From: Ignavibacteriota bacterium
GTDB taxonomy: Bacteria; Bacteroidota; Ignavibacteria; UBA10030
Length of the DNA stretch: 64,000 nt
Reading direction: 5' to 3'
NCBI GenBank assembly: GCA_963701295.1
Contig: OY969585.1
Span: 512,827-576,826, forward strand
Shown here: one piece after another, positions 32,843 to 47,980 of the stretch
Position numbering within the stretch: the stretch's first letter is position 1
Layout: each line of letters starts with the position of its first letter
Notes under the pieces: model-generated
What the model was told of the DNA's origin: nothing
Database searches by the model: none
Seen by the model: the letters and a program-made list of their open reading frames with translations, nothing else
Translations under genes and position numbers: made by a program

Positions 32843-33181
32843 CTAATATATAGAATCAGAAAGAAATTCAACTCCATCATCCAACTTGATAGATGCAATG
32901 GCACGGATAATTTTCTCAAGTTCCTTACGCTCGCTTGAAACATTGACACCAAGAAAATCAATATCCTTAGTGGGCCTTGCTTTCTCAATATTGTAAGCGA
33001 GAAGAAGGAAGCCGCCTTTTAACACAAACTTCTTTACATACTTTGATGCTGCAAGACGTGCAAGAAAGCGCTCCTGAATGTATCGCAGTAATAGAAAATT
33101 AAAATCAAGGTTTTCTTTTTCAGAAATATTTTTAAGGCGCGCTAGAACTGATGCGGAAACATTGGTAGTCGGTTTTTTCAT
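32843..33181 (-). CDS. AbiEii/AbiGii-family nucleotidyltransferase toxin, truncated (N-terminal about 112 aa only)
   Basis: N-terminal AbiEii motif. Full-length proteins are about 280-300 aa. The ORF ends at a cluster of palindromes. Confidence 0.55.
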   Translation of the reverse strand: MKKPTTNVSASVLARLKNISEKENLDFNFLLLRYIQERFLARLAASKYVKKFVLKGGFLLLAYNIEKARPTKDIDFLGVNVSSERKELEKIIRAIASIKLDDGVEFLSDSIY

Positions 33182-33771
33182 CCCATAATCACCTTCACAT
33201 ATTGAGAGATGATACCTTTTACTCGACAAATTTCTGCGAACTTCATCAGTTTATTGAGATCACGATTGCGTTTTCGGAGATACGTTTTGAGACCCTCCAT
33301 TACGATATCTTCACCGAGTTTGTTCCTGAACCGGAAACAATCACAGATAGTTTTTTCAACACCGTAGAGTCGAATATGACCAGCTTTGGTTTCGTGGTGT
33401 TCAATCCCTGTTTTGTACTGAGCTTCGGAAAAATAGAAAGACTCCGTCGGTGGATGAGAAAGCTTGATCGGTTTATTCGCTCTTGGAATGGCATACGTTA
33501 TAACTGTAGGAACGAATGTCGTAAGCTCGTGAAACGCGAGCGCTGAAGAAAGGCTGATAACTGCTTTCGGGATAGCAAGACAGACTTCTACGAGTCCGCT
33601 CGATTCACCAAGCTCAAGCTGCGAAAGCCGATATAGGCCAGCTTTCACCTTTACGATGTCGCCTCCATCAACTGCCTTCAGGATTTCCCTTGTGTGGATA
33701 CCGCTCGCTTTCATTTCCTTCATTCGAGCGTAACCCTTATGGGCTTTGAGATATTTTAGTATTTGATTCAT
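33178..33771 (-). CDS. AbiEi-family antitoxin/transcriptional regulator (type IV TA system)
   Basis: MNQILKYLKAHKGYARMKEMKASGIHTREILKAVDGGDIVKVKAGLYRL is the AbiEi N-terminal winged HTH. Its stop overlaps the toxin start. Confidence 0.65.
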   Translation of the reverse strand: MNQILKYLKAHKGYARMKEMKASGIHTREILKAVDGGDIVKVKAGLYRLSQLELGESSGLVEVCLAIPKAVISLSSALAFHELTTFVPTVITYAIPRANKPIKLSHPPTESFYFSEAQYKTGIEHHETKAGHIRLYGVEKTICDCFRFRNKLGEDIVMEGLKTYLRKRNRDLNKLMKFAEICRVKGIISQYVKVIMG

Positions 33772-34188
33772 ACGGATGGTTCTAATTAGCTGCACATAAT
33801 ATAAACGTGCAGTAGAAAAGAAGCAAGAGGCTGGCAAAGATTTAATCAAAAACGCCTGACGCATTACCAGACGCCAGTCGTTTAGGGAGTCTAACTATGC
33901 GCTGTCGGGGAGACGGCACGGGAATATTGTATGAAATGTTCTGGTTTTTGTCAATTAATATTTTAGATGAAAAATAAAGACCCCGGCACATTTATAAGTA
34001 CCGGGGCTCAAGGGGAAGGGGGTAAAGAACCACTGCGCGCCAACACAGTGATGCTACTGAAAAATAGCCGTTGATATCTTCGGGGGATTGATATCAATTT
34101 ACCCCCTTTTTAATTTCCGATTCATAAACTTTTTATTGCTTGGCATAATGATATTTACTAACAAAGATTTAAATAGTCAATTTCTCGT

Positions 34189-34542
34189 TTATTCAAGTAT
34201 GCCAAACGCTTGTTGCTCTATGGGAACAATTCCCTGTAATACATCCATCATATTTCGCGCACCGTCAGGATTAAACGAATGCACAACAACTCTCTCATGT
34301 AGTTTATCTTTCGTCATTTGTGAAATAAATTTCGCTACCGCGAATCCGCTTACTTCATCGCTTGGACAAAATATCTCCCCGCCTAAATCGTGATCGAGGC
34401 TTACTAAGTCATAAGGAGAATTTTGTTCCAGCATTTCTATTGCTTGTTCCACCGTTTCTACCTTGGTCAATTCATCTTCGACAAATTTAATCTCTGCCTC
34501 TTTCATTCTATCTTTGTCGTCATCGAGAAATAATACTTTCAT
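34189..34542 (-). CDS. Stand-alone receiver (REC-like) domain protein
   Basis: MKVLFLDDDKDRM...DLVSLDHDLGG... Acidic pocket and DxDL pattern of a CheY-like fold. 117 aa. Confidence 0.5.
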   Translation of the reverse strand: MKVLFLDDDKDRMKEAEIKFVEDELTKVETVEQAIEMLEQNSPYDLVSLDHDLGGEIFCPSDEVSGFAVAKFISQMTKDKLHERVVVHSFNPDGARNMMDVLQGIVPIEQQAFGILE

Positions 34543-35779: not shown

Positions 35780-35998
35780 CTACCAAAACCTCCACCAAGG
35801 TTTCCTTAATCCCTTAGCTATGAATTTGACATCTTTGTCTTTCATCCACATCGTAGCAAAAATCGAGGTGCCACAGTGCGGGCAATTATGCACCGGCTTT
35901 CCATTCGGGCTCACGATTTCTTTCTTACATTCGGGGCACGCAATACGATCTCTGAACTGCATAGACATTATCTCAGACAATCTCTTATCTTCTTTCAT
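35780..35998 (-). CDS. Small zinc-ribbon protein (CPECK...CPHCG)
   Basis: Start chosen at MKEDKRLSEIMSMQFRDRIACPECKKE... The longer upstream extension contains a duplicated segment. Confidence 0.4.
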   Translation of the reverse strand: MKEDKRLSEIMSMQFRDRIACPECKKEIVSPNGKPVHNCPHCGTSIFATMWMKDKDVKFIAKGLRKPWWRFW

Positions 35999-36233
35999 AA
36001 TATCATTCCTCCTTTTATTTGTTTTTTTCCCGATTTGTCCACGAACGAATATGACAGTTAATTTATATAATTTGCGCAGGATATACAAATTTGGTTTGCG
36101 GGCAATACGATCTCTGAGTCGAATGGATATCATTTCTCCCCTTTATTAATATTTACATCACAATTCGGCCATATTGTTATTTGTCGCAAAGAGGCGATCT
36201 CCAGCTGTCAATACACATGACCCTGGATTGTTG

Positions 36234-39200
36234 CTATTCGCCACAACCCTCCAACCGAAATAAATAGAAATTGCCTAAGAAATCGCCGCAGGCGATGAGA
36301 TGGCTGTCCGGCGAAATGCTCACGGCAAATACTTCTGCATCACAACAGTAGCTAAGTATTACCTGTCCTGTCCGGCGATCCCATACCTTGACGGTATGAT
36401 CAAAGCTACCTGATATGATAAACCTGCCATCTGATGAGAACGCACATGTTACGACGGTGTCTTGGTGACCCACCAAGGTGGTGAGCGGCTGTCCTGTGTG
36501 GCGATCCCACAGTCTGACGGTGTGATCGTAACTGCCGGAGACGATCCATTGGCCATCCGGTGAAACTGCACATGCCGTGATACTTCCCGTGTGACCGGTC
36601 AGGGTGGCAAGATCTTTTCCTGTTCGGCTTTCCCAGAGTTTTAATGTGGTATCGTTACTACCGGACACAATCAAACTCCCCTCCGGGGAAAAAGCACATG
36701 ACTCAACGGAACTCCGGTGCCCACGCAACGTTGCCAGTTCGTGTCCCATCTTTGCATCCCAGAGTTTGACTGTCGCATCACCACCGCCGGACACAATGCG
36801 GCTGCCCTCCGGCGAAAAGGCACACGTGTTGACGCTTGTTTCATTATGCCCGATGAACGTCCAGAGCTGTTCGCCATTTGAACTGTCCCAAAGTTTCAGG
36901 GTCTTGTCCTTGCTACTCGAAACGATGCGGCCTCCATCTGGCGAAAAGTGAGAACATGTTACTTCATCGTCGTGCCCGGCCAGCGTTGCAAGCTCCCGGC
37001 CTTGGCGGCCGTCCCAGATCTTCAGGGTCTTATCTTTGCTGCTTGACACGATCCGCGCACCATCCCGCGAAAATGCCAGGTGACTGATACACGCGTGATG
37101 TCCTGCCAAGGTAGCCAACTTTTTGCTGCCTTTGGTATTCCAGATTTTGAGCGTGTTGTCGGTACTGGTCGAGACGATATGCGAGCCATCCGGTGAGATC
37201 GCGCATGACTTGGCGCCCTCGTAATCATTTGCCAAGGTTGCCAACTCTTTTCCAATTACGGCATTCCACAGTTTAAGTGTGGAGCCTCCTGACACTATCA
37301 AGTTTCCATCTGAAGAGAATTCACAAGTGGATACACTGCCGTCGTGTCCTGTAAAAGGTGGCATCTCTTTTCCCGTCGCGGTATCCCAGACCTTTATACC
37401 AACTCCGGTCCCGCAGACTATGCGGCTGCCATTCGGCGAAAATTCGCAACTATGTATCTCAGAAATACCGTGGTTTTCTCCCGTGAACAGTGTTCGCTTC
37501 TCACCTGTCTTGATGTTAGTTAACGTCAGTGTTTCATTCCAATTGAAACCTACATTTTCCCTGTTCTCTCCCAATGCCAAGAAGTTACCATCTCGCGAAA
37601 GACGACAGAAGCCAAGTGCAATACCTTGTTGCCTTGTCCGCGTAGAGAATGCGACTTCTCCAGTGTAAATGGACCGGATTTTTAGGATACCATCGATATT
37701 ACTATACGAAGCAATGCGATCACCGTTAGCCAAGTAGGTACAGTAATCGACACCGGATTCATATCCGGTCAGAGTTCCCTGCAACTTCTCGGTGGCCCGA
37801 TTCCAGACCTTGACAGTTTTGTCTTTACTGCTCGACGCGATGAATTTCCCATCAGGAGAGAACTGACAGCAAGTCACGGTGTCGGTATGGCCGGAAAGTG
37901 TGACGATTTCGCTCCCGGTATCTACATCCCAGAGCTTGACGGTTTTGTCTTTCCCCCCGGACACGATGACCTTTCCATCCGGTGAAAAGGCGCATGTCTC
38001 GACACTCTCCGTGTGCCCAGTTAGCGTCATTAGTAAATGAGATTCCATGAGTTGCGGTTCCCGGCATTGGCGGAGAAATTTGCCACCACGCGCTAGGAAT
38101 CGCTTCCGCAGGGCGTCGAATGCGTCACTTATTTGACCTGATTTCCAGGAAAGGTTGTTATACAGGTATTGAAACGCATTCCGCGGGTCTGAGCGTAGAC
38201 GATGCTGCTCCAACATAACGGTATTATAGTATGTAGCGATCTCGGTCGGATTGGCTATAGGTGGCTTTAATTCCAGCGCTCTTTGGTAATCTGCTAACAA
38301 ATCATTTAGCAAATCTCCTTTCACTTTGGCTTCAAGGAACAATAGGTCGCTCAACGTCGCGTTCAGAACATCTCTGTCTCCAGCGTTGATCTCCTGGAAG
38401 GGAAGCTCTACCAAAGCGTGGATATCGCTGCCAATCCAGGTTTCATTGCCGGTGGGATCAGCCTTCCACAGAAAGAACCGGGCGAGACGGGCGTGGTATG
38501 CTGGCCTGAGATAGCGCTGTTTGATTGCTTCGCCGATCTGCCGTTGGTAATAACTCATCAGCACTGTGTTATCGGCTGCGCGCTCAACCAGATACGGAGC
38601 CAAGTCATGGTAGAGTCTGAGCCAAACGACCACCGGAATTCCTTCCGCCTCCGGGGATTTGGCAGAGCGCGCTTTCAGGTCGTCCATGACGTCTTGGTCA
38701 GAAAGGAGCACGATGATTTCACTCTCGGACAATCCATTCCGGGCGGCGGATAATAGGCCAAGAAAGGTCTTGACTAACAGTTCCCCATGGTGGCGCTTGT
38801 CTTGCAGCCTGGTGAGCATATTATCTACCATCCCAGCTACATCCTCGGCAAGAACCGACACATCGTCCCAGGATTTCCACCTTCGAACCTCTTCAAAGGC
38901 CAGCTTCAAGTAGAGAGGATAAGGACATTTTCGGAATCCCGCCAACACGCGCTTCTGCTGCTGTTTTGTCAGCGAGCGATGGACATCGTGGAGCCAATGC
39001 TGCAACACCTGTGCCCCTTCCTTTTGCCGCATGTGATCTAGGCGAAGGAACATCCGTTCAGAATCCCGCGATTTTCTTGACATGTTGGTCGACATCCTAC
39101 TCAGCCACGTCACAGTTTTCTTGAGCATCTCCCGAACGAATGTCGGCCGTTCATCTTCGGACTCTATTAGGGATGCGACAATGCGCACATACGGCGGCAA

Positions 39201-40559
39201 GACTCTTGGCAGCCAGCTAATCATATTGGCCAAGTCAGAATAAGCCAACTCAGATACTTCGAGCTGATCGAGGGCGTCGAGAAAGATGATGAGTGGTCGC
39301 TGTGTTGTCGCTAAATCAAGGAGACGTATGAACTCCTTCTCCAGTTCTTTAGCTCCGGACGGGATGTTGCCAAGTTTCACATGATACGCCTCGCTGATCT
39401 CGCGAACCAGATAATATAGGAGTCCACGCATTTCTATCGAGTGAGGTGTGGCTCCAATGAAGCGTTGGATAACATAGGCGTGCGCCTGTGTGTCAACAGC
39501 TTCGCGCGCCGCCTTCGCCATCAGGGCGGATTTACCGCTACCCGTCGGGCCAAAGATAAAAAGGGTGTATTCGTTTTCGTTACGGAGGTAAGCCGTGATC
39601 TGGTTCAATTGAGTCTGTCGGCCTACGAAGTTCTTGCACCGATCTGCACCGAATTCCTGATGCGCTGATCGCTCGAGAGATAAGGCGTCGACGTCTGCTA
39701 GCCGTTGAAACTCCTCTTCCAGGATGTTCCTCAGCGACGCCAACGCATCGGCGGCGAACTGGGCGAGGTGTTCATTTAGCGTCGTGCCGTTCCATATGAC
39801 AGCATAATCGAAATGATTGATCCCGGGTTTCTGCCGGATTGCTTCCTTGAGGGCGCGCGCCTGTTCTATACCATCGTCAACGTAGGGACTATTATGAGGG
39901 AGTTCTTCGACATTCTCGATATTGCGCAGAAAGGCGACAACATGTTCCTGCTGATCCGGCAACGCTAGCGCTCCATGGATAATTTCTTGATGCGTAGCCG
40001 AGCACTCATATTTGATCCGGCGTTGGTCATTCATCGGCCATCCAAGATGGTTTATAGCGTCTAGCAAGATGGCGTGCAACGTCCGTTCTGTCTGGAACCA
40101 GGCGTCATAGTCTTTTTCCTCAGGCACATACTCACGGCGCGAGCGTAATAAATATTCTGGGGGCATGGCGTTGGTGTCGAGCCGGTACCAGTCCGCTAAT
40201 AGAGGACGGTGGGCGACTGGGACCGCGGAGCGAATCGTGTCGAATTCAGTTACCTCGATCTGCGGCGGCAACGGCAGCCACCCATAGCGGTCACCGAAGA
40301 GGATGAGGAAGTTCGGTCGGGGCGAAACGTCCTGGCACCGTTTGAGCTCAGTCAGGCAAATATTCATCGTTTGCTGGTCGAGCGCCGCTTCTTCGGTGAC
40401 CCCCCAGCGTAGGTCAATGGCCTGAAAGTGGCACTGGTTCGCCTCGCAGAATTTCTGCAGTTCAGGGAACACCTTCTCCTGGAGCGCGTTGCGTTCCTCT
40501 TTCATGTCGGCAAAAGTTGAGCTGACAAATACACGGAATATCTTGGTTTGTTTTTGCAT
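36234..40559 (-). CDS. STAND NTPase: DUF4062 N-terminal domain, NACHT ATPase and C-terminal WD40 beta-propellers (about 14 or more repeats); NWD1/TEP1-like architecture
   Basis: N-terminus IFRVFVSSTFADMKEERNAL... matches the DUF4062 pattern. Walker A IFGPTGSGKSALM. Many LxGHxxxVxxCAFSPDG...WD repeats. GC content is visibly higher than the surrounding DNA. Confidence 0.8.
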   Translation of the reverse strand: MQKQTKIFRVFVSSTFADMKEERNALQEKVFPELQKFCEANQCHFQAIDLRWGVTEEAALDQQTMNICLTELKRCQDVSPRPNFLILFGDRYGWLPLPPQIEVTEFDTIRSAVPVAHRPLLADWYRLDTNAMPPEYLLRSRREYVPEEKDYDAWFQTERTLHAILLDAINHLGWPMNDQRRIKYECSATHQEIIHGALALPDQQEHVVAFLRNIENVEELPHNSPYVDDGIEQARALKEAIRQKPGINHFDYAVIWNGTTLNEHLAQFAADALASLRNILEEEFQRLADVDALSLERSAHQEFGADRCKNFVGRQTQLNQITAYLRNENEYTLFIFGPTGSGKSALMAKAAREAVDTQAHAYVIQRFIGATPHSIEMRGLLYYLVREISEAYHVKLGNIPSGAKELEKEFIRLLDLATTQRPLIIFLDALDQLEVSELAYSDLANMISWLPRVLPPYVRIVASLIESEDERPTFVREMLKKTVTWLSRMSTNMSRKSRDSERMFLRLDHMRQKEGAQVLQHWLHDVHRSLTKQQQKRVLAGFRKCPYPLYLKLAFEEVRRWKSWDDVSVLAEDVAGMVDNMLTRLQDKRHHGELLVKTFLGLLSAARNGLSESEIIVLLSDQDVMDDLKARSAKSPEAEGIPVVVWLRLYHDLAPYLVERAADNTVLMSYYQRQIGEAIKQRYLRPAYHARLARFFLWKADPTGNETWIGSDIHALVELPFQEINAGDRDVLNATLSDLLFLEAKVKGDLLNDLLADYQRALELKPPIANPTEIATYYNTVMLEQHRLRSDPRNAFQYLYNNLSWKSGQISDAFDALRKRFLARGGKFLRQCREPQLMESHLLMTLTGHTESVETCAFSPDGKVIVSGGKDKTVKLWDVDTGSEIVTLSGHTDTVTCCQFSPDGKFIASSSKDKTVKVWNRATEKLQGTLTGYESGVDYCTYLANGDRIASYSNIDGILKIRSIYTGEVAFSTRTRQQGIALGFCRLSRDGNFLALGENRENVGFNWNETLTLTNIKTGEKRTLFTGENHGISEIHSCEFSPNGSRIVCGTGVGIKVWDTATGKEMPPFTGHDGSVSTCEFSSDGNLIVSGGSTLKLWNAVIGKELATLANDYEGAKSCAISPDGSHIVSTSTDNTLKIWNTKGSKKLATLAGHHACISHLAFSRDGARIVSSSKDKTLKIWDGRQGRELATLAGHDDEVTCSHFSPDGGRIVSSSKDKTLKLWDSSNGEQLWTFIGHNETSVNTCAFSPEGSRIVSGGGDATVKLWDAKMGHELATLRGHRSSVESCAFSPEGSLIVSGSNDTTLKLWESRTGKDLATLTGHTGSITACAVSPDGQWIVSGSYDHTVRLWDRHTGQPLTTLVGHQDTVVTCAFSSDGRFIISGSFDHTVKVWDRRTGQVILSYCCDAEVFAVSISPDSHLIACGDFLGNFYLFRLEGCGE

Positions 40560-40822
40560 GGTAAATCTCTTTAGTTATATAATACTTGTGGTAGTGTTTT
40601 TATGATGCTTTTTTTCACCCAGCATCACCTGTTCTGCAGTCACTCTTTAGGGCGGGTCACCGTCCACTTGATAAGTACGCCGCAGAAACGGGAACACAAA
40701 GCACACTAGGTGGTCGCGTTCCATATGCATGTCACGAAAGGTGCTGTTGATAGATACTCGCCCTGTTTTTCCTCCTTCAGCTATTTATTCCTTAAGGATA
40801 TATACTCACAAGTAATGTACAC

Positions 40823-42442
40823 TTAGATATGTTCCACTTTTACAAACTTCATCAGCGTAAGCCATTCTTGTGTTTCCTGCAACATTAGTTTCTCTGTATC
40901 GTGTAAAAGATCCTTGAACTTCTGAATTGTTGTCGTCTCAGCGAATTTGTGATCAAGTCCATTCAAAGCTGCGGCCATATCCTTGCTTCTTTTTTCCAAG
41001 CGAGCGTATTCACGATGAGTACGGATACCACCAATGGAGGCACCAACGACAGGCAGCACAATAGCGAGGAAGAATATTGGTTGCTCCAACCAGTTTGTCC
41101 CCTCCATATTGTTTAAGATCGTTGATAAAAGATGTATCGCTGCTATTCCTATTGCTATGAAAAATATTAGCATACCAAAATTTTCTAGCCTCTTGCTAAT
41201 CTTTCCAGTTTGATACGATTTCTTTAGGTGAAAATTAATTTGATCTTGGATGAATTGCTTCCGAATAAAGTCCACATGCGAATTTAAACTCTCTTTGCAG
41301 CATTTCTCCAAATTGCCTACTCCTCTTTCGATTTCATCAAATACGCGTATTGCCCAATCAATAGAACTCAATGATGATTTCATGTAACGTGGAATTATTA
41401 TTGGAGAGGGTTTTACTCCACATGAAATCAAAAAAATCGCTGAGCGAATACGCTCTACCAAGAACCTACTCTCTATCCATCTTTTGTGTGCTTGTTTCCT
41501 GTCTGTTTTGAATATGACTATAAATATGAAAAGCAAGACTATGAACTCAATGATAAAAGCAGGAAGAGATAATGAACGATTCAACATCCCCAGTGTAACG
41601 GCAGCAACGGCCAGTGGAGAAAGTATATACACCAGCAAACCCGCTGCAAGATAGCTCCTCTGATTGACCTTTGCTAAGATTGATGAATGTACATAGAATG
41701 GCAACAACTTTTCTCTGATACTATTTTTTACTTCATCAGGTATTCGCATACCTTCAGGCGTGTCAAACAAATTCCTGTAAACATTGTTGATATAAGTTTC
41801 ACGAACTTCCTCTCGAACAGAGAAACGATCGAACATATTAAGTCTTAATAAAGATTCACTATTTAATCCAATTCCTTTTTCTACTAAACAAATATTAGGA
41901 TCCTCTGATGAAAGGATAATGAGTGGACATTTCATTTTGCGCGTATAGGTTACTATATCAGCAGTCCCTCCCTTTCCTCGAGATGGCTTGCCATCCCATA
42001 TAGCGATGAGCATATCACAATGATCTACAATATATTGTCCAGTACCTTCATATGCTTTCTGACGATCTTTAGCGACATTTCTTTTCTCATGTAATTCCTT
42101 TAGCATGTCTTTTTTTATGATTATGTGATGATGGGATATCTGGTAGAGTTCTTCAAATTCTTTTTTTGATGTCAGGGTCTGAAAGTCTTTCACATATTCA
42201 TTCTTTGCAAAGGGCAGAATGACTTCAATTTCCGAATCAGGTGTCCTCATAATTTCATTTGCAACTAATCGATCCGCACCTTCCGCTAGCGCTGTGACAA
42301 CTGTAAATGCAAAAGGCGTTATAGACTTATACTTTGAAATCGGTTGATCAAACAACTCGTAGATTGAAGATTTTAGTATTTCCCTGACTTTGGAAGCAAT
42401 TATTTCGGGTTCCTTCAGGTACTCTATGACCTGTGACACCAA
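40823..42442 (-). CDS. SLOG-like Rossmannoid N-terminal domain fused to a C-terminal 4-TM SLATT-like membrane domain (predicted nucleotide-sensing membrane effector)
   Basis: N-terminal ...ALAEGADRLVANEIM...DHCDMLIAIWDGKPSRGKGGTADIV... is a LOG/SLOG/DprA-like motif. Four C-terminal hydrophobic helices. TTG start. Confidence 0.6.
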   Translation of the reverse strand: MVSQVIEYLKEPEIIASKVREILKSSIYELFDQPISKYKSITPFAFTVVTALAEGADRLVANEIMRTPDSEIEVILPFAKNEYVKDFQTLTSKKEFEELYQISHHHIIIKKDMLKELHEKRNVAKDRQKAYEGTGQYIVDHCDMLIAIWDGKPSRGKGGTADIVTYTRKMKCPLIILSSEDPNICLVEKGIGLNSESLLRLNMFDRFSVREEVRETYINNVYRNLFDTPEGMRIPDEVKNSIREKLLPFYVHSSILAKVNQRSYLAAGLLVYILSPLAVAAVTLGMLNRSLSLPAFIIEFIVLLFIFIVIFKTDRKQAHKRWIESRFLVERIRSAIFLISCGVKPSPIIIPRYMKSSLSSIDWAIRVFDEIERGVGNLEKCCKESLNSHVDFIRKQFIQDQINFHLKKSYQTGKISKRLENFGMLIFFIAIGIAAIHLLSTILNNMEGTNWLEQPIFFLAIVLPVVGASIGGIRTHREYARLEKRSKDMAAALNGLDHKFAETTTIQKFKDLLHDTEKLMLQETQEWLTLMKFVKVEHI

Positions 42443-42605
42443 TTTTGATCCGATAAGGAATATTGGATGGAGGCATGCTATTTTAGTTTCTCAAAATTAT
42501 AACGTATATGTATTTCTCGATTGGACAATCGCCTTACCTTTAGAAATGTTATTGCAATGACAAATCTTGGTTGGATATTAAGATAGGCACCGTAGTCCTA
42601 TTTGA

Positions 42606-45359
42606 TTATATGCTTACCTCTATCGGTGCTTTCCGCTCGAACGCCTCCAAAATAAGGTTATTCTTAACTTTGTCAAACGAGATCATCGTACCGGAAAGGT
42701 TGAACTGTTCAGGACAAGTACCTCGATATACACTGCCCTCGGATGTCTCGACGACCACAGGCGTTTCTATACAGTCCAGATCCACAGTGATACGTCTGAT
42801 CTCAGGAATACTGATACGCATCCAGCCGAGTGACTTCTCAACAAACTGGATATAGCCGTCATAGCCCAGCTTGTCAAAGTGCCCTACGATTGCACGGGGT
42901 TGTAACAGGAATTTCAGTAGAGAGGTGTCCCAATAAACTTGCTGGGGAATCAATGATGGTCTTTCCACCTCAGCAATCCGTTTGATCGTAAGGGGGGATG
43001 TTCTGTTGGTGCGGACGAGTGCAATCACAGCATCGCGGGTTACCAGACAGGGTCCCATCGTCAGGAACCTATAGTCATCATAATTCCCGAGCTTTCGTAG
43101 ACCTCCTGTGAAACAACCAATGTCTTTTGTTTCTATGGACATCTCGTTCTTCTTTGCGGTCATTGAGATAATCTGATCTGTCCTAATCTTGACTTCACCC
43201 AACAGATTATCGAGCACCGCAATTTCTTCGATAGTACCCCCTGCGGCATAGTCCAAAAGATAGCCAACTTGCCCTGTTTCGGAAATCTTGAAGAAAACCC
43301 TGTTGTCGTGAGAATCCACAAAAGTAGCATTCCAGCCCGTCAACCATATTTCCTTGCCACGCACGCTTGGTAACTGATACCAGGGCCAGCCATTCATAGA
43401 ATACTTTATGCCACTCCATTTGTCATCCATGCCCTTCTTCGCGTATTGCAGAGGCGTGCCCGGGAGGTAGGAAAAAGAGAGGACTTTCGAGTCCTTCGCT
43501 CCGATAGTAAAAGCTAGATCATTCGTTGCAAAAAGGAAGCGTTCAGAATTCGACTGAGTTTGTACACGCTCAGCCTGGACTTCCGACGCATCAGCTACCA
43601 CCTCCTGAGCCTGCTCCAGGAGAACTGCTCGCTGGGATGGTTCAACTTTCACAATCTCAGGAACGGGCGATGGTAACGATTTCGAGATATCTTTGGAGCT
43701 CGCTGCTTCCTTGTTTGCAGAAGGCCCCCCTGTTTTCCTGACCATATCGAAAATCCAGATATTTCGGTCGTCACCGCAGAACATCATGTTGCCTGATATG
43801 TGGGCTACATAGAAGAGACCGTCTTTTGCAAATCCGAGCCTCGGCTGTGTAGGTTGTGAGATGTCGTACACAAACAGTCGGCCACTATCGTTGTAGTATA
43901 GCCAATCATCGGATATATAGACTTGAACGCCAAAAAGGGTTTTGATTGTATGCTCTAAGGGCAGTTCGTAGCATGAATCGGACTCAAGCTCCTCTGGAAA
44001 ATTCTCGAGACTATACACGGCCAGTAGGGGACGAGAGGTTCTAAAGTCCTTCCCAAAAACGTACAATCGCCTGTTGCCAGAGACAATTCCTCCTGGGACA
44101 AGGCAACCGTCGGGGAACTCTACGGTTACCGTCTTGATCTCCACTACTTCTTCTTCCCTGAGGCGAACGATGCGTAATTGAGGATCTTTATAGTTGCCAA
44201 GAATCAAGTAGTCATCGAAGAGGGCGCCCGACCCTGCGCTGAAGTGAACAACACCGATTTCGCGAACATTCTTGCTGACTTCTTGCCGGTCAGAGAAATC
44301 GAGGACCTTAACGCCACAATTTTCTGAGTGGCACAAATCGATCACAATGTTCTTGTTATAGACAAGGAGTCCATTTCCGCAGTTATTGAAGATATTCCTG
44401 TGATAGTTCTCGAAAAACACTTCCTTCGGGTTCGTCGGATCCTTATAGTCGATGACTCTTATAGAAGCATCACGGCCTCGCAGCAATCCAATCTCCCCAA
44501 TGAGCTCAAACCACTTTGTGTCGATATAAGGAACAGGAAAGAGCGATATGAGTTTGGGTGACCGAGGGTCGGAGATATCAAACGCACGCATCCCGTCGTA
44601 CGTTGGCAAGAATGCGAGCGAACCGGATACAAGCAGGTTCATCGGATCCCCAGACTTCTTCTTGGAAATGAGATGCTCTTTCGCGGATGTACCAACAAGC
44701 TTCAATTCGACTGCTGTTCCGGATACCCACTCATTTTCAATAAGCGCGAAGCTGTCGTTTGTCGTGGTTTCATTGCTGACGATCGATTGAAAAGTCTCCG
44801 ATATTGGTGCAGGTTCATTCGATCTTGTTCCAATATGCTTCTGAGAAATAGATCGTTTCTCTGTTAATCGTTCTGATAGATTGCTACGTTGGCTGACAAC
44901 ACCATCAGTTGAATCCTTGTCTCTTAGCTCATCTGGAATCCCTTTGATTAGTTTTTTAAAATATGTGTTTTCATCAAGTTGGAACTTCAGGATTCCTTGA
45001 AGACGACTCATTCGCAAAACCATCCCCTCGGGCAACTTAACGTTTTCAAGAGAGACATAGAGAAAAGTCTTGTTTTTTATGATTGCGTAATTAATCTCAT
45101 CCTTGACATATTCTGATTCACGTGACCGCGCTGTGATGAAAACCAAAAATAATGAACAACCTTCTAATTGCTTCTCGATCACACTTGAAAACTCCGACGT
45201 AGCAACGATACCGTCGTCATACCAAATCCGGTAGCCCATAACATGCAGTCGTTTAATCTCTTTAAAAACGATATCACTGTCATCATGAGAATAGCTTACA
45301 AAAACATAGGGCTCTTTACCATCGTAAGCATCAAAAGGGGGTGAGATCTTAGTTGCCAT
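42606..45359 (-). CDS. TIR-domain protein fused to a large beta-propeller (LVIVD-like repeats)
   Basis: N-terminal TIR motif YVFVSYSHDDSDIVF...WYDDG...ESEYVKDEINYA. Recurring ...DISDPRSP... and ...YDISQPTQPR... motifs downstream. Confidence 0.75.
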   Translation of the reverse strand: MATKISPPFDAYDGKEPYVFVSYSHDDSDIVFKEIKRLHVMGYRIWYDDGIVATSEFSSVIEKQLEGCSLFLVFITARSRESEYVKDEINYAIIKNKTFLYVSLENVKLPEGMVLRMSRLQGILKFQLDENTYFKKLIKGIPDELRDKDSTDGVVSQRSNLSERLTEKRSISQKHIGTRSNEPAPISETFQSIVSNETTTNDSFALIENEWVSGTAVELKLVGTSAKEHLISKKKSGDPMNLLVSGSLAFLPTYDGMRAFDISDPRSPKLISLFPVPYIDTKWFELIGEIGLLRGRDASIRVIDYKDPTNPKEVFFENYHRNIFNNCGNGLLVYNKNIVIDLCHSENCGVKVLDFSDRQEVSKNVREIGVVHFSAGSGALFDDYLILGNYKDPQLRIVRLREEEVVEIKTVTVEFPDGCLVPGGIVSGNRRLYVFGKDFRTSRPLLAVYSLENFPEELESDSCYELPLEHTIKTLFGVQVYISDDWLYYNDSGRLFVYDISQPTQPRLGFAKDGLFYVAHISGNMMFCGDDRNIWIFDMVRKTGGPSANKEAASSKDISKSLPSPVPEIVKVEPSQRAVLLEQAQEVVADASEVQAERVQTQSNSERFLFATNDLAFTIGAKDSKVLSFSYLPGTPLQYAKKGMDDKWSGIKYSMNGWPWYQLPSVRGKEIWLTGWNATFVDSHDNRVFFKISETGQVGYLLDYAAGGTIEEIAVLDNLLGEVKIRTDQIISMTAKKNEMSIETKDIGCFTGGLRKLGNYDDYRFLTMGPCLVTRDAVIALVRTNRTSPLTIKRIAEVERPSLIPQQVYWDTSLLKFLLQPRAIVGHFDKLGYDGYIQFVEKSLGWMRISIPEIRRITVDLDCIETPVVVETSEGSVYRGTCPEQFNLSGTMISFDKVKNNLILEAFERKAPIEVSI

Positions 45360-45388
45360 AATTTAGCTCCAAATACTCTTTTAAAAAG

Positions 45389-47980
45389 TCAACTCAAGCT
45401 TGACACAATCTTATATTTTGCTTGTTTTAAAATATCAGGATATTTTCTTACGGAATTCCTGTCCTTCTCTTTGTTCTCTTCGGACAACTCGAGATACGGT
45501 TTCAGACAGTCATGTATTTTTTTTGAATCGTCTCGAGGTTTTCCACAGGTCCAACCATTTTCAATTTTATGGTCCATCCAGTCATTGTGTTCGGCTTCTG
45601 CAAGCATCTCAATGTTCGCTTCGATGATCTCCATAATCTCCACTATGGGTTGGGACTTTGAATAAGTCTCAGGTACTACATATAACCCTACCAGATCGAG
45701 TACATTAGGGATTCGAGCCGCGGCAGCCCGATTGTCGTCCTTGTAATCTTCTGATAATAAATCGAAATCCCGATTCATCTCTGACCGGATCCACTTTCCT
45801 TTTATTCCCGATTGCCAATAAAAATCGTGGACGAAGGGCGCCAGATCCTCCGCGTGGGTTTTGAACTTCAAATCCCGATTAACGATACCAATAAAATCTG
45901 CAGAATCTGCATGCATGGACAGGATCTCCTCAGACGGCAGATCGGATCTGCGTATTGAAGGAATGTCCTGCTTTTTCAACTGGAGGATAATTTTTTCTAA
46001 AGACCGGGCGCCATGTTTGAACCGATTGGTCTCAATGAGCGCTGAAAGGATACCATGGTCAATGGCCAGCGGTTCGGTTTCCTTCAATCCGAGCATTGCC
46101 CTGATCAGCAAGCCTCTTCTGACCGGGTAACATACGTCTTGGGAATCATCGATCCATTGTTGTTTTTTTGTATTGTAAGTCTGTTTCTGGTTCGGTCCGA
46201 GCACGTTCAAATACCCGCTAAGCCTGCTTATGAAGTCCGGACCTTTTTTCAATTTGAATTCATTCCACTTCTTTTCATCTGTCTCTTTTGGACCGAAGTT
46301 CTCCATATCATAGCTGGTACCGCCCGCGAACACAAAAACGCTTTTCCCAATCGGGTGTGAAATCTGACCCTCGAGAAATTTCCCATCTTGCATCGGCGCC
46401 AGAAGGTACTGCAACCATTGGTATTCCTTGGAATCAAATTCATCCCAGAACACAATCGGTAAAGTACCCTGAAGCACTTTATCTCTCACCTGATGGAAAG
46501 CCCCAATTAAAGCATCGGGATCCTTGAACTGAGATAGGTTAAATTCCAAAATGGGAACGTCTTTGCCGAGAATCCCTTTTGCGATCTCGCAGATTCCGAA
46601 GCTCTTGCCTGCTCCTGGAGGTCCGAACACAGCAAGGCTGAGCGGTTTCTTGCCTTTATCGTGATCTTTATAATCTATGATCATCGCGCGAATATTCCGC
46701 AGGCTTTCGATTTCATTTCGATCCGCGGTGTACAGTTTTCCAAATCGGGCACACGGAACCTGGGTCAACGCCTTGGGACCTTTAACAGCAACCCTACGGC
46801 CAATGCCAAAGAGTGGCCTTGGGTTTTTATGGATGCCTTCCAGAACAGCTGTCATAATCGTCCAGGTCTTGCGTTCTAGCTCGATAGACTTTTTGGGATT
46901 CGGTATCTGAATTATGGGATACCAAAATTTCGGATTCAGGACATCCTTAATCACATCGACGAGTGGGAATCCGGGGTTACTGCATCCCGCAGTCCCGTGC
47001 CCCGAGAGGTGCATGGTCCGCATCGCTGAAAGTCCTGCACGGATGCCTTCATAAATTGAATCTGAATGATTCGGTTGGAGTAGACGATCGATGATTCCTG
47101 AAGTGAGGCAGGCCATATAGCCGAGACCTTGTCCTTCAATTGGATCGCTCCATTCACGTTCAAGGTGTTCCGGATCGTAAACAAGATGAAAGATTTTCTC
47201 GCTAACGTTGTTTTCCACATGGAGCGCGCCTTCCGATCCGAAGTGAACAATGAGATGCCGGCAATTCAGCAGGGAATTAATTTCTGAATTGAAGCACAAT
47301 TCCTCTGCAAGTTCCAGAGCTGTTCGCTCCCACGAAATTCCCCTGCTCACTTTCACTTCTTCCCGTCGGATATCCCCGATTGAAACCACAACCACCAGCT
47401 TGTCGCGGAACTGGGTACTAAGATACCTCCACAGATCACCCTGACCCACTGGGCTTGACATTTTTAGGACAATCCACTTCAGTTCTTGTATCTCCTTTTT
47501 CAGAATCGACTTTGGCCATGCTCCCTTCTGTGTATTTTGCCTGAACCCAAGTCCACCGTCATCGATTACTACGACTGTGGGTTTGTTCGACGTTTCGGCT
47601 GCATGTTCCACGTAAGAGAAAGAAGATTCTATTTGACTACCATATCCTAGGGGCTGTGCCATTCTCCAAACTTTTTTATCCTTTTCAAAAGGAAACGGTT
47701 TCCAGAGTGCGTATCCATTCAAGGCCGCAGGAAGCTTTTTAAAAATATCATCTCTTAATCCGAACTGAACGTCAAACGGATTTTGAAGTTCTTTACTCTC
47801 AGATCTCTTTTTCCCTATTTCTTCGAGGATTCGAAAAAGAAGTCCAGCCCCGCCGTCTGTCGTTTGCTCCTGAGTTCCTGTTTTTTCTATAGCATTGGGA
47901 ACAAGACGTTCGCCCATATAAATTTGATGATCAACGACCACATCACCAGTAACTAAAACCGTTCTGGAGTTTCGAGGCAT
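45389..47980 (-). CDS. AAA+ ATPase with a C-terminal RyR (ryanodine-receptor-type) domain and a long N-terminal Rossmann-like region
   Basis: Walker A VFGPPGAGKSFG and Walker B IVFWDEFD. C-terminal EHNDWMDHKIENGWTCGKPRDDSKKIHDCLKPYLELSEENKEKDRNSV is the RyR-domain signature. Confidence 0.7.
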   Translation of the reverse strand: MPRNSRTVLVTGDVVVDHQIYMGERLVPNAIEKTGTQEQTTDGGAGLLFRILEEIGKKRSESKELQNPFDVQFGLRDDIFKKLPAALNGYALWKPFPFEKDKKVWRMAQPLGYGSQIESSFSYVEHAAETSNKPTVVVIDDGGLGFRQNTQKGAWPKSILKKEIQELKWIVLKMSSPVGQGDLWRYLSTQFRDKLVVVVSIGDIRREEVKVSRGISWERTALELAEELCFNSEINSLLNCRHLIVHFGSEGALHVENNVSEKIFHLVYDPEHLEREWSDPIEGQGLGYMACLTSGIIDRLLQPNHSDSIYEGIRAGLSAMRTMHLSGHGTAGCSNPGFPLVDVIKDVLNPKFWYPIIQIPNPKKSIELERKTWTIMTAVLEGIHKNPRPLFGIGRRVAVKGPKALTQVPCARFGKLYTADRNEIESLRNIRAMIIDYKDHDKGKKPLSLAVFGPPGAGKSFGICEIAKGILGKDVPILEFNLSQFKDPDALIGAFHQVRDKVLQGTLPIVFWDEFDSKEYQWLQYLLAPMQDGKFLEGQISHPIGKSVFVFAGGTSYDMENFGPKETDEKKWNEFKLKKGPDFISRLSGYLNVLGPNQKQTYNTKKQQWIDDSQDVCYPVRRGLLIRAMLGLKETEPLAIDHGILSALIETNRFKHGARSLEKIILQLKKQDIPSIRRSDLPSEEILSMHADSADFIGIVNRDLKFKTHAEDLAPFVHDFYWQSGIKGKWIRSEMNRDFDLLSEDYKDDNRAAAARIPNVLDLVGLYVVPETYSKSQPIVEIMEIIEANIEMLAEAEHNDWMDHKIENGWTCGKPRDDSKKIHDCLKPYLELSEENKEKDRNSVRKYPDILKQAKYKIVSSLS

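Follow-up and report, generated by a model that had tools for sequence, protein, structure and literature searches.

The 'SLOG and 4TM' protein was listed as a putative Thoeris effector in a December 2025 preprint (10.64898/2025.12.03.692087, Tables S1/S2), in which two such systems were tested in E. coli and defence was not seen. The same study validated the combination of TIR and SLATT proteins as type VII Thoeris, with cADPR as the signal, and reports that the SLOG domain of ThsA senses 3'cADPR (10.64898/2025.12.03.692087). RyR-domain proteins of phages show nanomolar binding or hydrolysis of 2'/3'cADPR (PMC13232231), and DUF4062 is a TIR-like NADase domain converting NAD+ to ADPR (10.64898/2026.05.01.722283).

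The gene pair flagged by the first-pass annotation of the window (the whole stretch of 64,000 nucleotides that was analysed) looks, by its predicted domains, like a Thoeris-type phage-defence system with NAD-derived signals. As that annotation described, the two genes are adjacent and co-oriented (open reading frames 42606-45359, 917 aa, and 40823-42442, 539 aa, both on the minus strand), and the domains of the STAND NTPase and the AAA–RyR protein that it named as neighbours were both found by profile search. It took the TIR and SLOG–SLATT genes as the unit; however, the AAA–RyR and DUF4062–STAND genes belong to the conserved neighbourhood. The functional unit is probably a defence cluster of four genes, of abortive-infection type and built around NAD+/ADP-ribose (ADPR), because TIR, RyR and DUF4062 genes and the SLOG family co-occur in locus surveys. 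The features of the cluster are as follows:

36234-47980, minus strand: cluster of four genes (genes 1-4), all on the minus strand
45389..47980, minus strand: gene 1, ribokinase (PfkB)-fold–AAA+–RyR, 863 aa
42606..45359, minus strand: gene 2, TIR–predicted LVIVD-type beta-propeller–C-terminal domain without family match, 917 aa
44925..45311, minus strand: TIR domain of gene 2, aa ~17-145 (TIR_2 9.5e-14)
45096-45098, minus strand: codon of the catalytic glutamate E88
43725..44717, minus strand: predicted beta-propeller module of LVIVD type, presumed sensor, aa ~215-545 (LVIVD match, conserved in homologues P0122-P0128)
42609..43547, minus strand: C-terminal domain without family match, aa ~605-917 (homologue alignment)
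40823..42476, minus strand: gene 3, SLOG-2xSLATT putative effector, 550 aa after frame repair
42418..42419, minus strand: frameshift site, CC in the window against a single C in the independent assembly L083 (blastn)
41756..42476, minus strand: SLOG domain, YpsA-like, aa 1-~240 of the repaired protein (fold)
40826..41728, minus strand: two SLATT 2-TM modules (NCBIfam SLATT_1, SLATT_3, hydropathy)
36234..40559, minus strand: gene 4, DUF4062–NACHT/AAA_16 STAND–NWD1-type wHTH–WD40, 1441 aa

The end of gene 1 and the start of gene 2 are 29 bp apart, and 129 bp separate gene 2 from the start of gene 3 on the same strand. Profile searches with the gene 2 product revealed matches to Pfam TIR_2 (9.5e-14) and ThsB_TIR (3.9e-5). 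TIR_2 was matched by all 73 TIR domains found next to SLOG–SLATT genes, and in the alignment of these 73 domains E88, the glutamate of ...SEYVKDEINYA, is the sole invariant column, which bears out the TIR domain and catalytic glutamate context reported earlier. The propeller, previously put at about 750 aa, shrinks to a conserved module of only about 330 aa (aa ~215-545), the C-terminal part being a separate domain. Scanned alone, one LVIVD repeat scored above the Pfam cut-off (24.3 bits versus 20.2), and PF08309/PF09826 are present in distant homologues. Residues ~605-917 gave no Pfam family match; the domain that they form is mobile, and in the alignment with homologue P0122 it is placed between the TIR domain and the propeller.

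Gene 3 is split as assembled by an additional C at about 42418 that causes a +1 frameshift. An upstream ATG at 42476 begins the frame for the near-invariant N-terminus MPPSNIPYRIKIGVTGHRV, and the annotated product of 538/539 aa is without strand 1 and the GVTGHR loop. L083, an independent assembly with 99.957% identity across 9.3 kb, does not have the extra base and encodes an intact 550-aa protein (P0178); the 539 aa given by the first-pass annotation were the length of a frameshift-truncated reading. If the additional C is not a sequencing error, the frameshift may leave this strain without an active system. The gene 3 protein was modelled with AF2 (pLDDT 92.4, pTM 0.90), and its N-terminal domain has the characteristics of the SLOG superfamily: a Rossmannoid fold like that of YpsA, DprA and LOG, in which strand 1 leads into a Gly-rich loop and a loop of GGT type is present. 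Pfam, NCBIfam and PDB sequence searches did not recognise the SLOG domain directly, and weak Nuc_deoxyrib_tr, cpYpsA and YpsA matches were obtained for some homologues only, so that the proposed N-terminal SLOG domain holds by its YpsA-like fold but not by direct sequence recognition. The SLATT type of the C-terminal four-TM region was substantiated: NCBIfam SLATT_1 matched residues 397-530 with 41.2 bits (cut-off 41), SLATT_3 weakly matched residues 250-335, and a hydropathy scan found four TM segments (aa 274-299, 303-326, 429-457 and 463-486). Pfam SLATT_1 scored below its cut-off on the window protein (21.3 versus 26.3); within the SLOG–SLATT family it matched 29/30 members (down to 4e-10), DUF4231 matched 24/30 and SLATT_3 23/30. 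Searches with Pfam, NCBIfam and PADLOC revealed no SIR2 domain in the proteins of the cluster, which differs in this from the layout of type I ThsA.

The product of gene 1 contains a ribokinase (PfkB)-fold domain (aa ~5-345), an AAA+ ATPase (~400-620) and two C-terminal RyR repeats (~700-863; PF02026, Pfam 3.4e-16). The N-terminal domain conforms to the ribokinase fold; the PfkB catalytic signatures (GG..N and GAGD with the catalytic Asp) were not recognisable by eye, a provisional observation, and GGAGLL and GLGYM stand at the expected places. Sequence comparison indicates that the RyR repeat retains the four residues with which phage RyDEP binds or cleaves cADPR isomers, the tetrad H798/W801/H823/D840 being conserved with identical spacing. 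Three host architectures with RyR repeats were found, namely ribokinase-fold–AAA–RyR, TrkA_N–RyR and RelA/SpoT–SLOG–RyR; in the TrkA_N–RyR partner proteins other residues stand in place of the tetrad's second His and its Asp. The gene 4 product begins with DUF4062 (PF13271, 47.2 bits versus a cut-off of 24.7) at the N-terminus of a STAND NTPase, followed by AAA_16/NACHT (AAA_16 1.3e-14), HTH_NWD1 and WD40 (2e-119). As it carries this TIR-like NADase domain, gene 4 is a potential second signal generator; by domain, two of the four proteins, the TIR–propeller and the DUF4062–NACHT–WD40 protein, are sensors of a type that cleaves NAD+.

A survey of 82 loci homologous to SLOG–SLATT, with TIR genes counted within 10 kb, found a TIR gene within this distance in 56 loci, within 3 kb in 51 and within 300 bp in 29. 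TIR density decreases from 1.46 per 10 kb at 0-2 kb to 0.04-0.10 per 10 kb at 6-10 kb, a decay of 15-fold or more. RyR genes occur in 33 of the 82 loci (within 300 bp in 24, 22 of these on the same strand) and DUF4062 STAND genes in 12; one or more of the three types are found in 71/82. The expectation that homologues of the two flagged genes would co-occur is borne out for TIR genes generally (56/82), but not for the specific TIR–propeller family: the closest TIR–propeller homologues reside in other TIR/NADAR islands, and their neighbourhoods show no coupling of this family to SLOG–SLATT. What is coupled to SLOG–SLATT is thus any TIR carrying a sensor domain. Reciprocally, among 80 AAA–RyR loci, the SLOG family is present in 40 and adjacent or fused in 32, including four in-frame AAA–RyR–SLOG fusions; no gene is tied more closely to this SLOG family than AAA–RyR, which had been treated simply as a neighbour. 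TIR or DUF4062 was found in 36 of the 80 loci, and in 31/41 of those whose flanks reach 5 kb or more. The gene types of the cluster are found together in several phyla; in the closest relative L169, a SLOG–SLATT gene (65% identical) is followed by a DUF4062–STAND gene (42%), and the gene order is kept.

The earlier core idea of a Thoeris-like system, in which a TIR generator with a repeat sensor acts with a SLOG–SLATT effector, retains its basis in domain identity, fold and conserved neighbourhood, but not for the pair alone. A mechanism can be proposed in which a phage component would engage the propeller or WD40 sensors and cause their oligomerisation, whereupon the TIR and/or DUF4062 domain would convert NAD+ to a second messenger derived from ADPR, which may be a cADPR isomer. 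The messenger would be bound by the YpsA-like SLOG domain, as in the ThsA SLOG, and the two SLATT hairpins would oligomerise or open in the membrane, so that membrane integrity would collapse before the phage cycle is completed. The AAA–RyR protein would bind the same messenger via its RyR repeats; it may set a threshold and end signalling, as a host 'off-switch' glycosidase or sponge, or may couple signal binding to an ATP-driven second output. Points that speak against this reading are the two 'SLOG and 4TM' systems that gave no defence in E. coli, the TIR–propeller homologues away from SLOG–SLATT, the frameshift in gene 3, the lack of recognisable PfkB signatures and the replaced tetrad residues of the TrkA_N–RyR proteins.

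Another reading, which we regard as rather unlikely, is that the true system consists of AAA–RyR and SLOG(–SLATT), with or without the DUF4062–STAND gene, and that the TIR–propeller is an independent single-gene defence inserted between them, its sensor being fused to a NAD+-depleting TIR effector. TIR-STAND and TIR-repeat proteins are known as stand-alone NADase effectors. One locus (L002) has AAA–RyR immediately upstream of SLOG–SLATT and no TIR in the available sequence, and several others likewise contain both genes and no TIR, so the TIR may be dispensable; the AAA–RyR–SLOG fusions and the TIR/NADAR islands without SLOG–SLATT that house the closest TIR–propeller homologues point the same way, and Avs-type TIRs were excluded by the preprint itself (10.64898/2025.12.03.692087). 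This independence is, however, at odds with the strong local enrichment of TIR genes beside SLOG–SLATT in many phyla and with the nearest relative of the AAA–RyR gene (L168, 85% identical), where a TIR gene follows at the same spacing of about 30 bp; its TIR domain is 75% identical and its sensor domain is different, which suggests that the module has kept its TIR.

It is also conceivable, if improbable, that the SLOG here is an enzyme, a LOG/YpsA-like N-glycosidase or nucleotide processor making or modifying the signal, with RyR as the receptor and SLATT, where it is present, regulated via AAA–RyR. SLOG-only proteins (~190-220 aa, without an effector domain) are the commonest AAA–RyR partner (23/43 SLOG-family matches), and since so many of these loci have SLOG without SLATT, SLOG may have a role other than pore gating; its polar residues H17, R18, E65, D68, R69, D161 and T171 are each at least 90% conserved, and catalytic SLOG domains are allowed by the comparative-genomics literature (PMC9503650). 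Yet the ThsA SLOG, the sole experimentally characterised SLOG in a TIR system, is a sensor, and the direct SLOG–SLATT fusion is a classical sensor–effector arrangement. A decaying remnant, its effector pseudogenised and without current function in this organism, seems very improbable: the single-nucleotide frameshift, together with a truncated AbiEii-like ORF and an rve transposase remnant in the adjacent region, would fit it, but the independent assembly, whose DNA is essentially the same, carries the gene intact, the other three genes have their full length and closely resemble intact homologues, and no other lesion is seen in the remainder of the effector ORF.

Under the preferred reading of a four-gene cluster, the link of host-encoded RyR to TIR/SLOG immune signalling appears to be new. 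More tentatively, host RyR-repeat proteins could be integral third components of TIR/DUF4062–SLOG immune signalling, acting for the cell as a receptor of ADPR-derived messengers or as their off-switch. In that case the RyDEP enzymes of phage counter-defence would be regulators captured from hosts, and the two nucleotide-sensing modules of animal Ca2+-channels, the RyR R12 repeats and the TRPM SLOG, would trace to one bacterial immune module. A missing RyR partner could also explain the failure of two-gene 'TIR + SLOG-4TM' constructs to protect E. coli.

Animal TRPM2 combines SLOG-like MHR1/2 with an ADPR-gated channel, and the Pfam name of LSDAT is 'SLOG in TRPM'. The cluster resembles TRPM2 and RyR channels only in its domain logic, by the fusion of SLOG to a module predicted to permeabilise membranes and by RyR repeats for nucleotide binding; the TM parts are without homology. 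Searches of NCBIfam and PADLOC gave no Thoeris effector match for the cluster. The architecture is outside the characterised Thoeris types, as had been stated, inasmuch as 'SLOG and 4TM' is unvalidated, but it had already been predicted in the December 2025 preprint. The putative 'TIR + SLOG and 4TM' systems likewise have a TIR gene beside a SLOG-plus-four-TM gene, a likeness drawn from architecture and weak TIR-domain similarity; the preprint describes two-gene operons, with Avs-type TIRs excluded, whereas the TIRs here are long sensor fusions, with AAA–RyR and DUF4062–STAND genes in the conserved neighbourhood.

Type VII Thoeris (ThsB and ThsH, canonical cADPR) shares the TIR generator and SLATT membrane effector, and its model has SLATT oligomerisation induced by the signal; ThsH is annotated as SLATT only, with ligand pockets proposed between SLATT protomers, whereas here a dedicated SLOG precedes two SLATT modules. 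In type I ThsA (SIR2–SLOG) and the type III/IX SLOG effectors, SLOG is the receptor for a TIR-made cADPR isomer; the likeness here is that of a SLOG by fold, with YpsA similarity detectable at fold level only, and the predicted output is a membrane hairpin pair rather than SIR2 or TIR. With phage RyDEP/R12 (PF02026) the RyR repeat shares the identically spaced H, W, H, D residues of ligand binding and catalysis (PMC13232231), but the RyR repeats here are host-encoded, in tandem, joined to a ribokinase-fold domain and an AAA+ ATPase, and lie inside a defence cluster rather than in phage counter-defence. With the DUF4062 NADases (Swarozyc and Evangelion) gene 4 has in common a layout like that of human TEP1/NWD1, in which DUF4062 stands at the N-terminus and a NACHT NTPase and WD40 repeats come after it. 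The bacterial systems described so far work as single proteins that deplete NAD+, whereas gene 4 is embedded with SLOG–SLATT and RyR genes, a setting in which its predicted ADPR product may be read out.

Four long ORFs are arranged head-to-tail on the minus strand of the window. The gap after gene 1 is 29 bp, the true start of gene 3 lies 129 bp beyond gene 2, and genes 3 and 4 are separated by 263 bp. Their domain identities and genomic coupling are directly observed, and the best-supported reading is that of a multi-component NAD+/ADPR-centred defence cluster.

Genes of the cluster and features on its downstream side
45389-47980, minus strand: gene 1, AAA-RyR, 863 aa
42606-45359, minus strand: gene 2, TIR-propeller, 917 aa
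40823-42442, minus strand: gene 3 as assembled, SLOG-SLATT, 539 aa, TTG start
36234-40559, minus strand: gene 4, DUF4062-STAND, 1441 aa
34687-35008, downstream side: rve-type transposase remnant, frameshifted
34189-34542, minus strand: cREC_REC gene, 117 aa (PF20274, 1.2e-17), downstream of the cluster, 1.7 kb past the STAND gene
33178-33864, downstream side: AbiEi antitoxin-like gene, overlapping the next ORF
32843-33229, downstream side: truncated AbiEii-like ORF

The first-pass annotation had placed genes 2 and 3 in a defence island; the defence setting holds, but this is a small islet and not a large island, the upstream side from 48.8 kb being occupied by housekeeping genes (rhodanese, sulphur transport, cytochromes). 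For the cREC_REC or 'cyclic-phosphate processing receiver' domain, published work predicts a role in acting on or processing ADPR derivatives, and the gene could be a member of the same ADPR-centred island. A further 117-aa ORF (35780-36133, minus strand), lying 100 bp past the end of the STAND gene, contains a CxxC...CxxC zinc-ribbon motif; it gave no family match, and gene calling in the independent assembly L083 likewise predicts it. A promoter and terminator scan performed no better than shuffled controls, and the Rfam search found distant tRNAs only.

The homologue search with gene 3 yielded 241 matches; the full-length family members, about 550 aa long, all open with the near-invariant strand and loop IPFRIRIGVTGHR, absent from the 539-aa ORF. 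The corresponding sequence MPPSNIPYRIKIGVTGHRV is encoded just upstream in another frame, from an ATG at 42476 (minus strand), the real start of gene 3, and an additional C near 42418 disrupts the frame. A 550-aa protein (P0178) from an independent Logan assembly (run ERR10755942), identical to the repaired gene 3 sequence, falls in the same 90% cluster as the deposited 538-aa protein (P0001). Its contig, L083, matches the window at 99.957% identity across 9.3 kb and shows only one C at the frameshift site; the lesion is therefore an assembly error or else a mutation of very recent origin. This exposes an annotation problem, the deposited product being a frameshift-truncated reading.

Assignment of the SLOG domain by sequence alone failed: residues 1-240 of gene 3 gave no match in Pfam, NCBIfam or PADLOC (the last has no model for the SLOG-SLATT protein), and the family profile found only spurious matches for this domain among PDB sequences. 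The AlphaFold2 model of the repaired protein, built on a 111-sequence alignment, was confident (pLDDT 92.4, pTM 0.90), and a Foldseek search with it revealed YpsA as the only significant match (E 1.1e-4, target TM 0.70). The C-terminal half contains four hydrophobic helices (aa 274-299, 303-326, 429-457 and 463-486) and matches NCBIfam SLATT_1 at 41.2 bits (cut-off 41) and, weakly, SLATT_3; among 30 family members, 29 match SLATT_1, 24 DUF4231 and 23 SLATT_3. Model and profile matches together confirm the SLOG + 2xSLATT architecture, in agreement with the suggestion of a SLOG-like N-terminal domain fused to four SLATT-type transmembrane helices. The profile check proposed for both proteins thus recognised TIR and SLATT, but SLOG came to light only via AlphaFold2 and Foldseek.

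The TIR domain of gene 2 (aa 19-124) is clearly indicated by Pfam TIR_2 (9.5e-14) and ThsB_TIR (3.9e-5), and PADLOC gave weak ThsB-type matches. TIR_2 was found by Pfam in 73/73 TIR domains adjoining gene 3 homologues, and E88, the glutamate of ...SEYVKDEINYA, is the sole invariant column of their alignment, which bears out the catalytic glutamate context noted earlier. The middle region is an LVIVD-type beta-propeller, one repeat of which scored 24.3 bits (cut-off 20.2) when the region was scanned alone, and distant homologues carry PF08309 and PF09826. The proposed propeller of roughly 750 aa was too generous: the conserved module is limited to aa ~215-545, and aa ~605-917 form a separate domain without a family match, which in the homologue P0122 is placed between TIR and propeller. 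At the loci of the closest TIR-propeller homologues, L085 and L086, 3-4 TIR genes are clustered together with NADAR and HATPase_c_3 genes and several ORFs lacking annotation; these TIR-rich islands possibly represent another multi-TIR system with a different effector.

At least 522 SLOG-SLATT loci came to light when one genome per GTDB species was scanned; 80 of these were examined and, with two loci from metagenomes, formed the survey set (n=82), in which partners were called by iterative searches seeded with the window domains and then checked with Pfam. The anticipated co-occurrence was observed: a TIR gene was present within 10 kb at 56/82 loci, within 3 kb at 51 and within 300 bp at 29, and, with the density at 6-10 kb as an internal control, TIR gene density fell from 1.46 per 10 kb at less than 2 kb from SLOG-SLATT to 0.04-0.10 per 10 kb. 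RyR-domain partners were found at 33/82, 29 and 24 loci at the same distances (22 of the 24 on the same strand) and DUF4062 partners at 12/82, 4 and 3; any of the three was present within 10 kb at 71/82. Among the partners, the TIR proteins are long fusions to sensor domains (TIR-NB-ARC/AAA_16-TPR, TIR-WD40, TIR with unknown domains), and the RyR partners have three architectures: AAA-RyR, as in the window, TrkA_N-RyR and RelA/SpoT-TPR-SLOG(LSDAT_prok)-RyR. The last, a protein of ~820 aa adjoining SLOG-SLATT in Dehalococcoidia (L021:5895-8402, L022:11383-13827), carries a (p)ppGpp-synthetase-like domain, a TRPM-type SLOG and RyR repeats on a single polypeptide. At L169, a SLOG-SLATT gene (65% identical) precedes a DUF4062-AAA_16 STAND gene (42% identical); the window STAND protein has DUF4062 at 47.2 bits, then NACHT/AAA_16, an NWD1-type wHTH and WD40 repeats. 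DUF4062 is a TIR-like NADase domain producing ADPR, according to two 2026 preprints (including 10.64898/2026.05.01.722283).

The coupling is also seen from the AAA-RyR gene, gene 1, which most likely belongs to the system. The AAA-RyR family comprises more than 2,400 matches with 44-85% identity over the full length, and 40/80 metagenomic AAA-RyR loci contain the SLOG family of gene 3, adjoining or fused in 32. These loci carry 43 SLOG-family ORFs, of which 23 have the SLOG part only (mostly proteins of ~190-220 aa), 14 SLOG and SLATT, and six only the SLATT part. At L123, L127, L144 and L147 the SLOG-only match belongs to an in-frame AAA-RyR-SLOG fusion, an ORF of 1034-1154 aa with the order ribokinase-fold-AAA-RyR and SLOG at the C-terminus; these four fusions provide a 'Rosetta stone' link between both genes. 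TIR or DUF4062 genes occur at 36/80 AAA-RyR loci, and at 31/41 where the flank is at least 5 kb. At L168, a TIR gene begins 30 bp after the AAA-RyR gene (85% identical); its TIR domain is 75% identical to that of the window, and its C-terminal domain is FGE-sulfatase-like in place of the propeller, an instance of the sensor swapping typical of immune receptors. Another close AAA-RyR relative, L088, is uninformative, long ORFs being nearly absent downstream of the TIR gene. At L165:432-8095, an AAA-RyR gene is preceded by a run of six TIR genes, five tandem ~350-aa paralogues on the same strand and then one of 638 aa on the opposite strand; the 21.5 kb of sequence gave no SLOG-family match.

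The gene 1 protein (AlphaFold2 model, pLDDT 91.2) ends in a tandem RyR repeat (Pfam RyR 3.4e-16; PDB RyR repeat domains down to 2e-26). The N-terminal ribokinase-fold domain (aa 5-345) keeps the GD (G12, D13) and GG (G43, G44) motifs, and the PfkB signatures are unrecognisable, with GGAGLL and GLGYM where GG..N and GAGD are expected (a provisional comparison by eye); the domain seems to lack the GAGD catalytic Asp and is possibly a ribose- or nucleoside-binding pseudo-kinase.

In the defence cluster proposed here, TIR-propeller and DUF4062-STAND would be infection sensors cleaving NAD+ into a messenger, SLOG-SLATT a membrane effector gated by it, and AAA-RyR a further component that binds the messenger and either regulates or terminates signalling or provides an ATP-driven output. 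In the main rival reading, the TIR-propeller would be a stand-alone NADase defence, unrelated to the AAA-RyR/SLOG-SLATT system into which it was inserted. The window's TIR-propeller subfamily is not coupled to SLOG-SLATT, and its closest homologues occur in islands alongside other TIR genes, NADAR and HATPase genes; at the level of the TIR domain, the L168 neighbour and the distance-dependent enrichment of TIR genes speak against this rival and for a TIR retained within the module. SLOG may be catalytic in the gene 3 family, a second rival raised because SLOG-only partners are common; the window protein itself has the four-helix SLATT half. A decaying locus is the third rival: the AbiEi/AbiEii overlap and the rve remnant point to a mobile or defence region in decay; against this reading, an independent assembly carries gene 3 intact.

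Thoeris-type signalling is by now recognised as widespread, but the SLOG-4TM configuration still awaits validation. In a December 2025 preprint cataloguing Thoeris diversity (10.64898/2025.12.03.692087), type VII combines TIR and SLATT, with canonical cADPR as the signal, and 'SLOG and 4TM' appears among the putative effectors; two systems of this kind (Streptomyces sp. GKU 895, Ca. Nitrospira nitrosa) gave no defence in E. coli. The '4TM SLOG' TIRs of that catalogue showed only weak BLAST similarity to TIRs of the surveyed loci (28-40% identity, E 1e-3 to 2e-5) and no match to the window TIR. The pair, taken by the first-pass annotation to lie outside the characterised Thoeris types, is not wholly new; it belongs to a configuration already predicted and tested elsewhere without success. 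The new, testable element is the conserved coupling of SLOG-SLATT with host RyR-repeat proteins and DUF4062 sensors, which suggests that the two-gene view of the SLOG-4TM configuration is incomplete, and the conserved three- to four-component module defines a concrete construct for testing.

The literature search found no paper tying bacterial RyR proteins to SLOG or TIR loci. Phage RyR-domain proteins (RyDEP, PF02026) either bind 2'/3'cADPR with nanomolar affinity or hydrolyse it, through H75, W78, H100 and D117 (PMC13232231, May 2026 preprint). Among the RyR partners, the H/W/H/D tetrad was scored by alignment, regular expressions being too strict; the TrkA_N-RyR partners retain no more of it than the first His and an aromatic residue. 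The gene 1 protein resembles RyDEP in having H798, W801, H823 and D840 at exactly equal spacing, invariant or at least 90% conserved among 86 homologues. Because a host RyR-repeat protein with the exact cADPR-isomer binding and cleaving residues of RyDEP is placed inside a bacterial immune cluster, two questions become testable: the origin of the phage RyDEP domains and of the ligand-sensing domains of animal RyR and TRPM, and whether bacteria regulate or terminate their own ADPR-based immune signals, as ring nucleases do in type III CRISPR.
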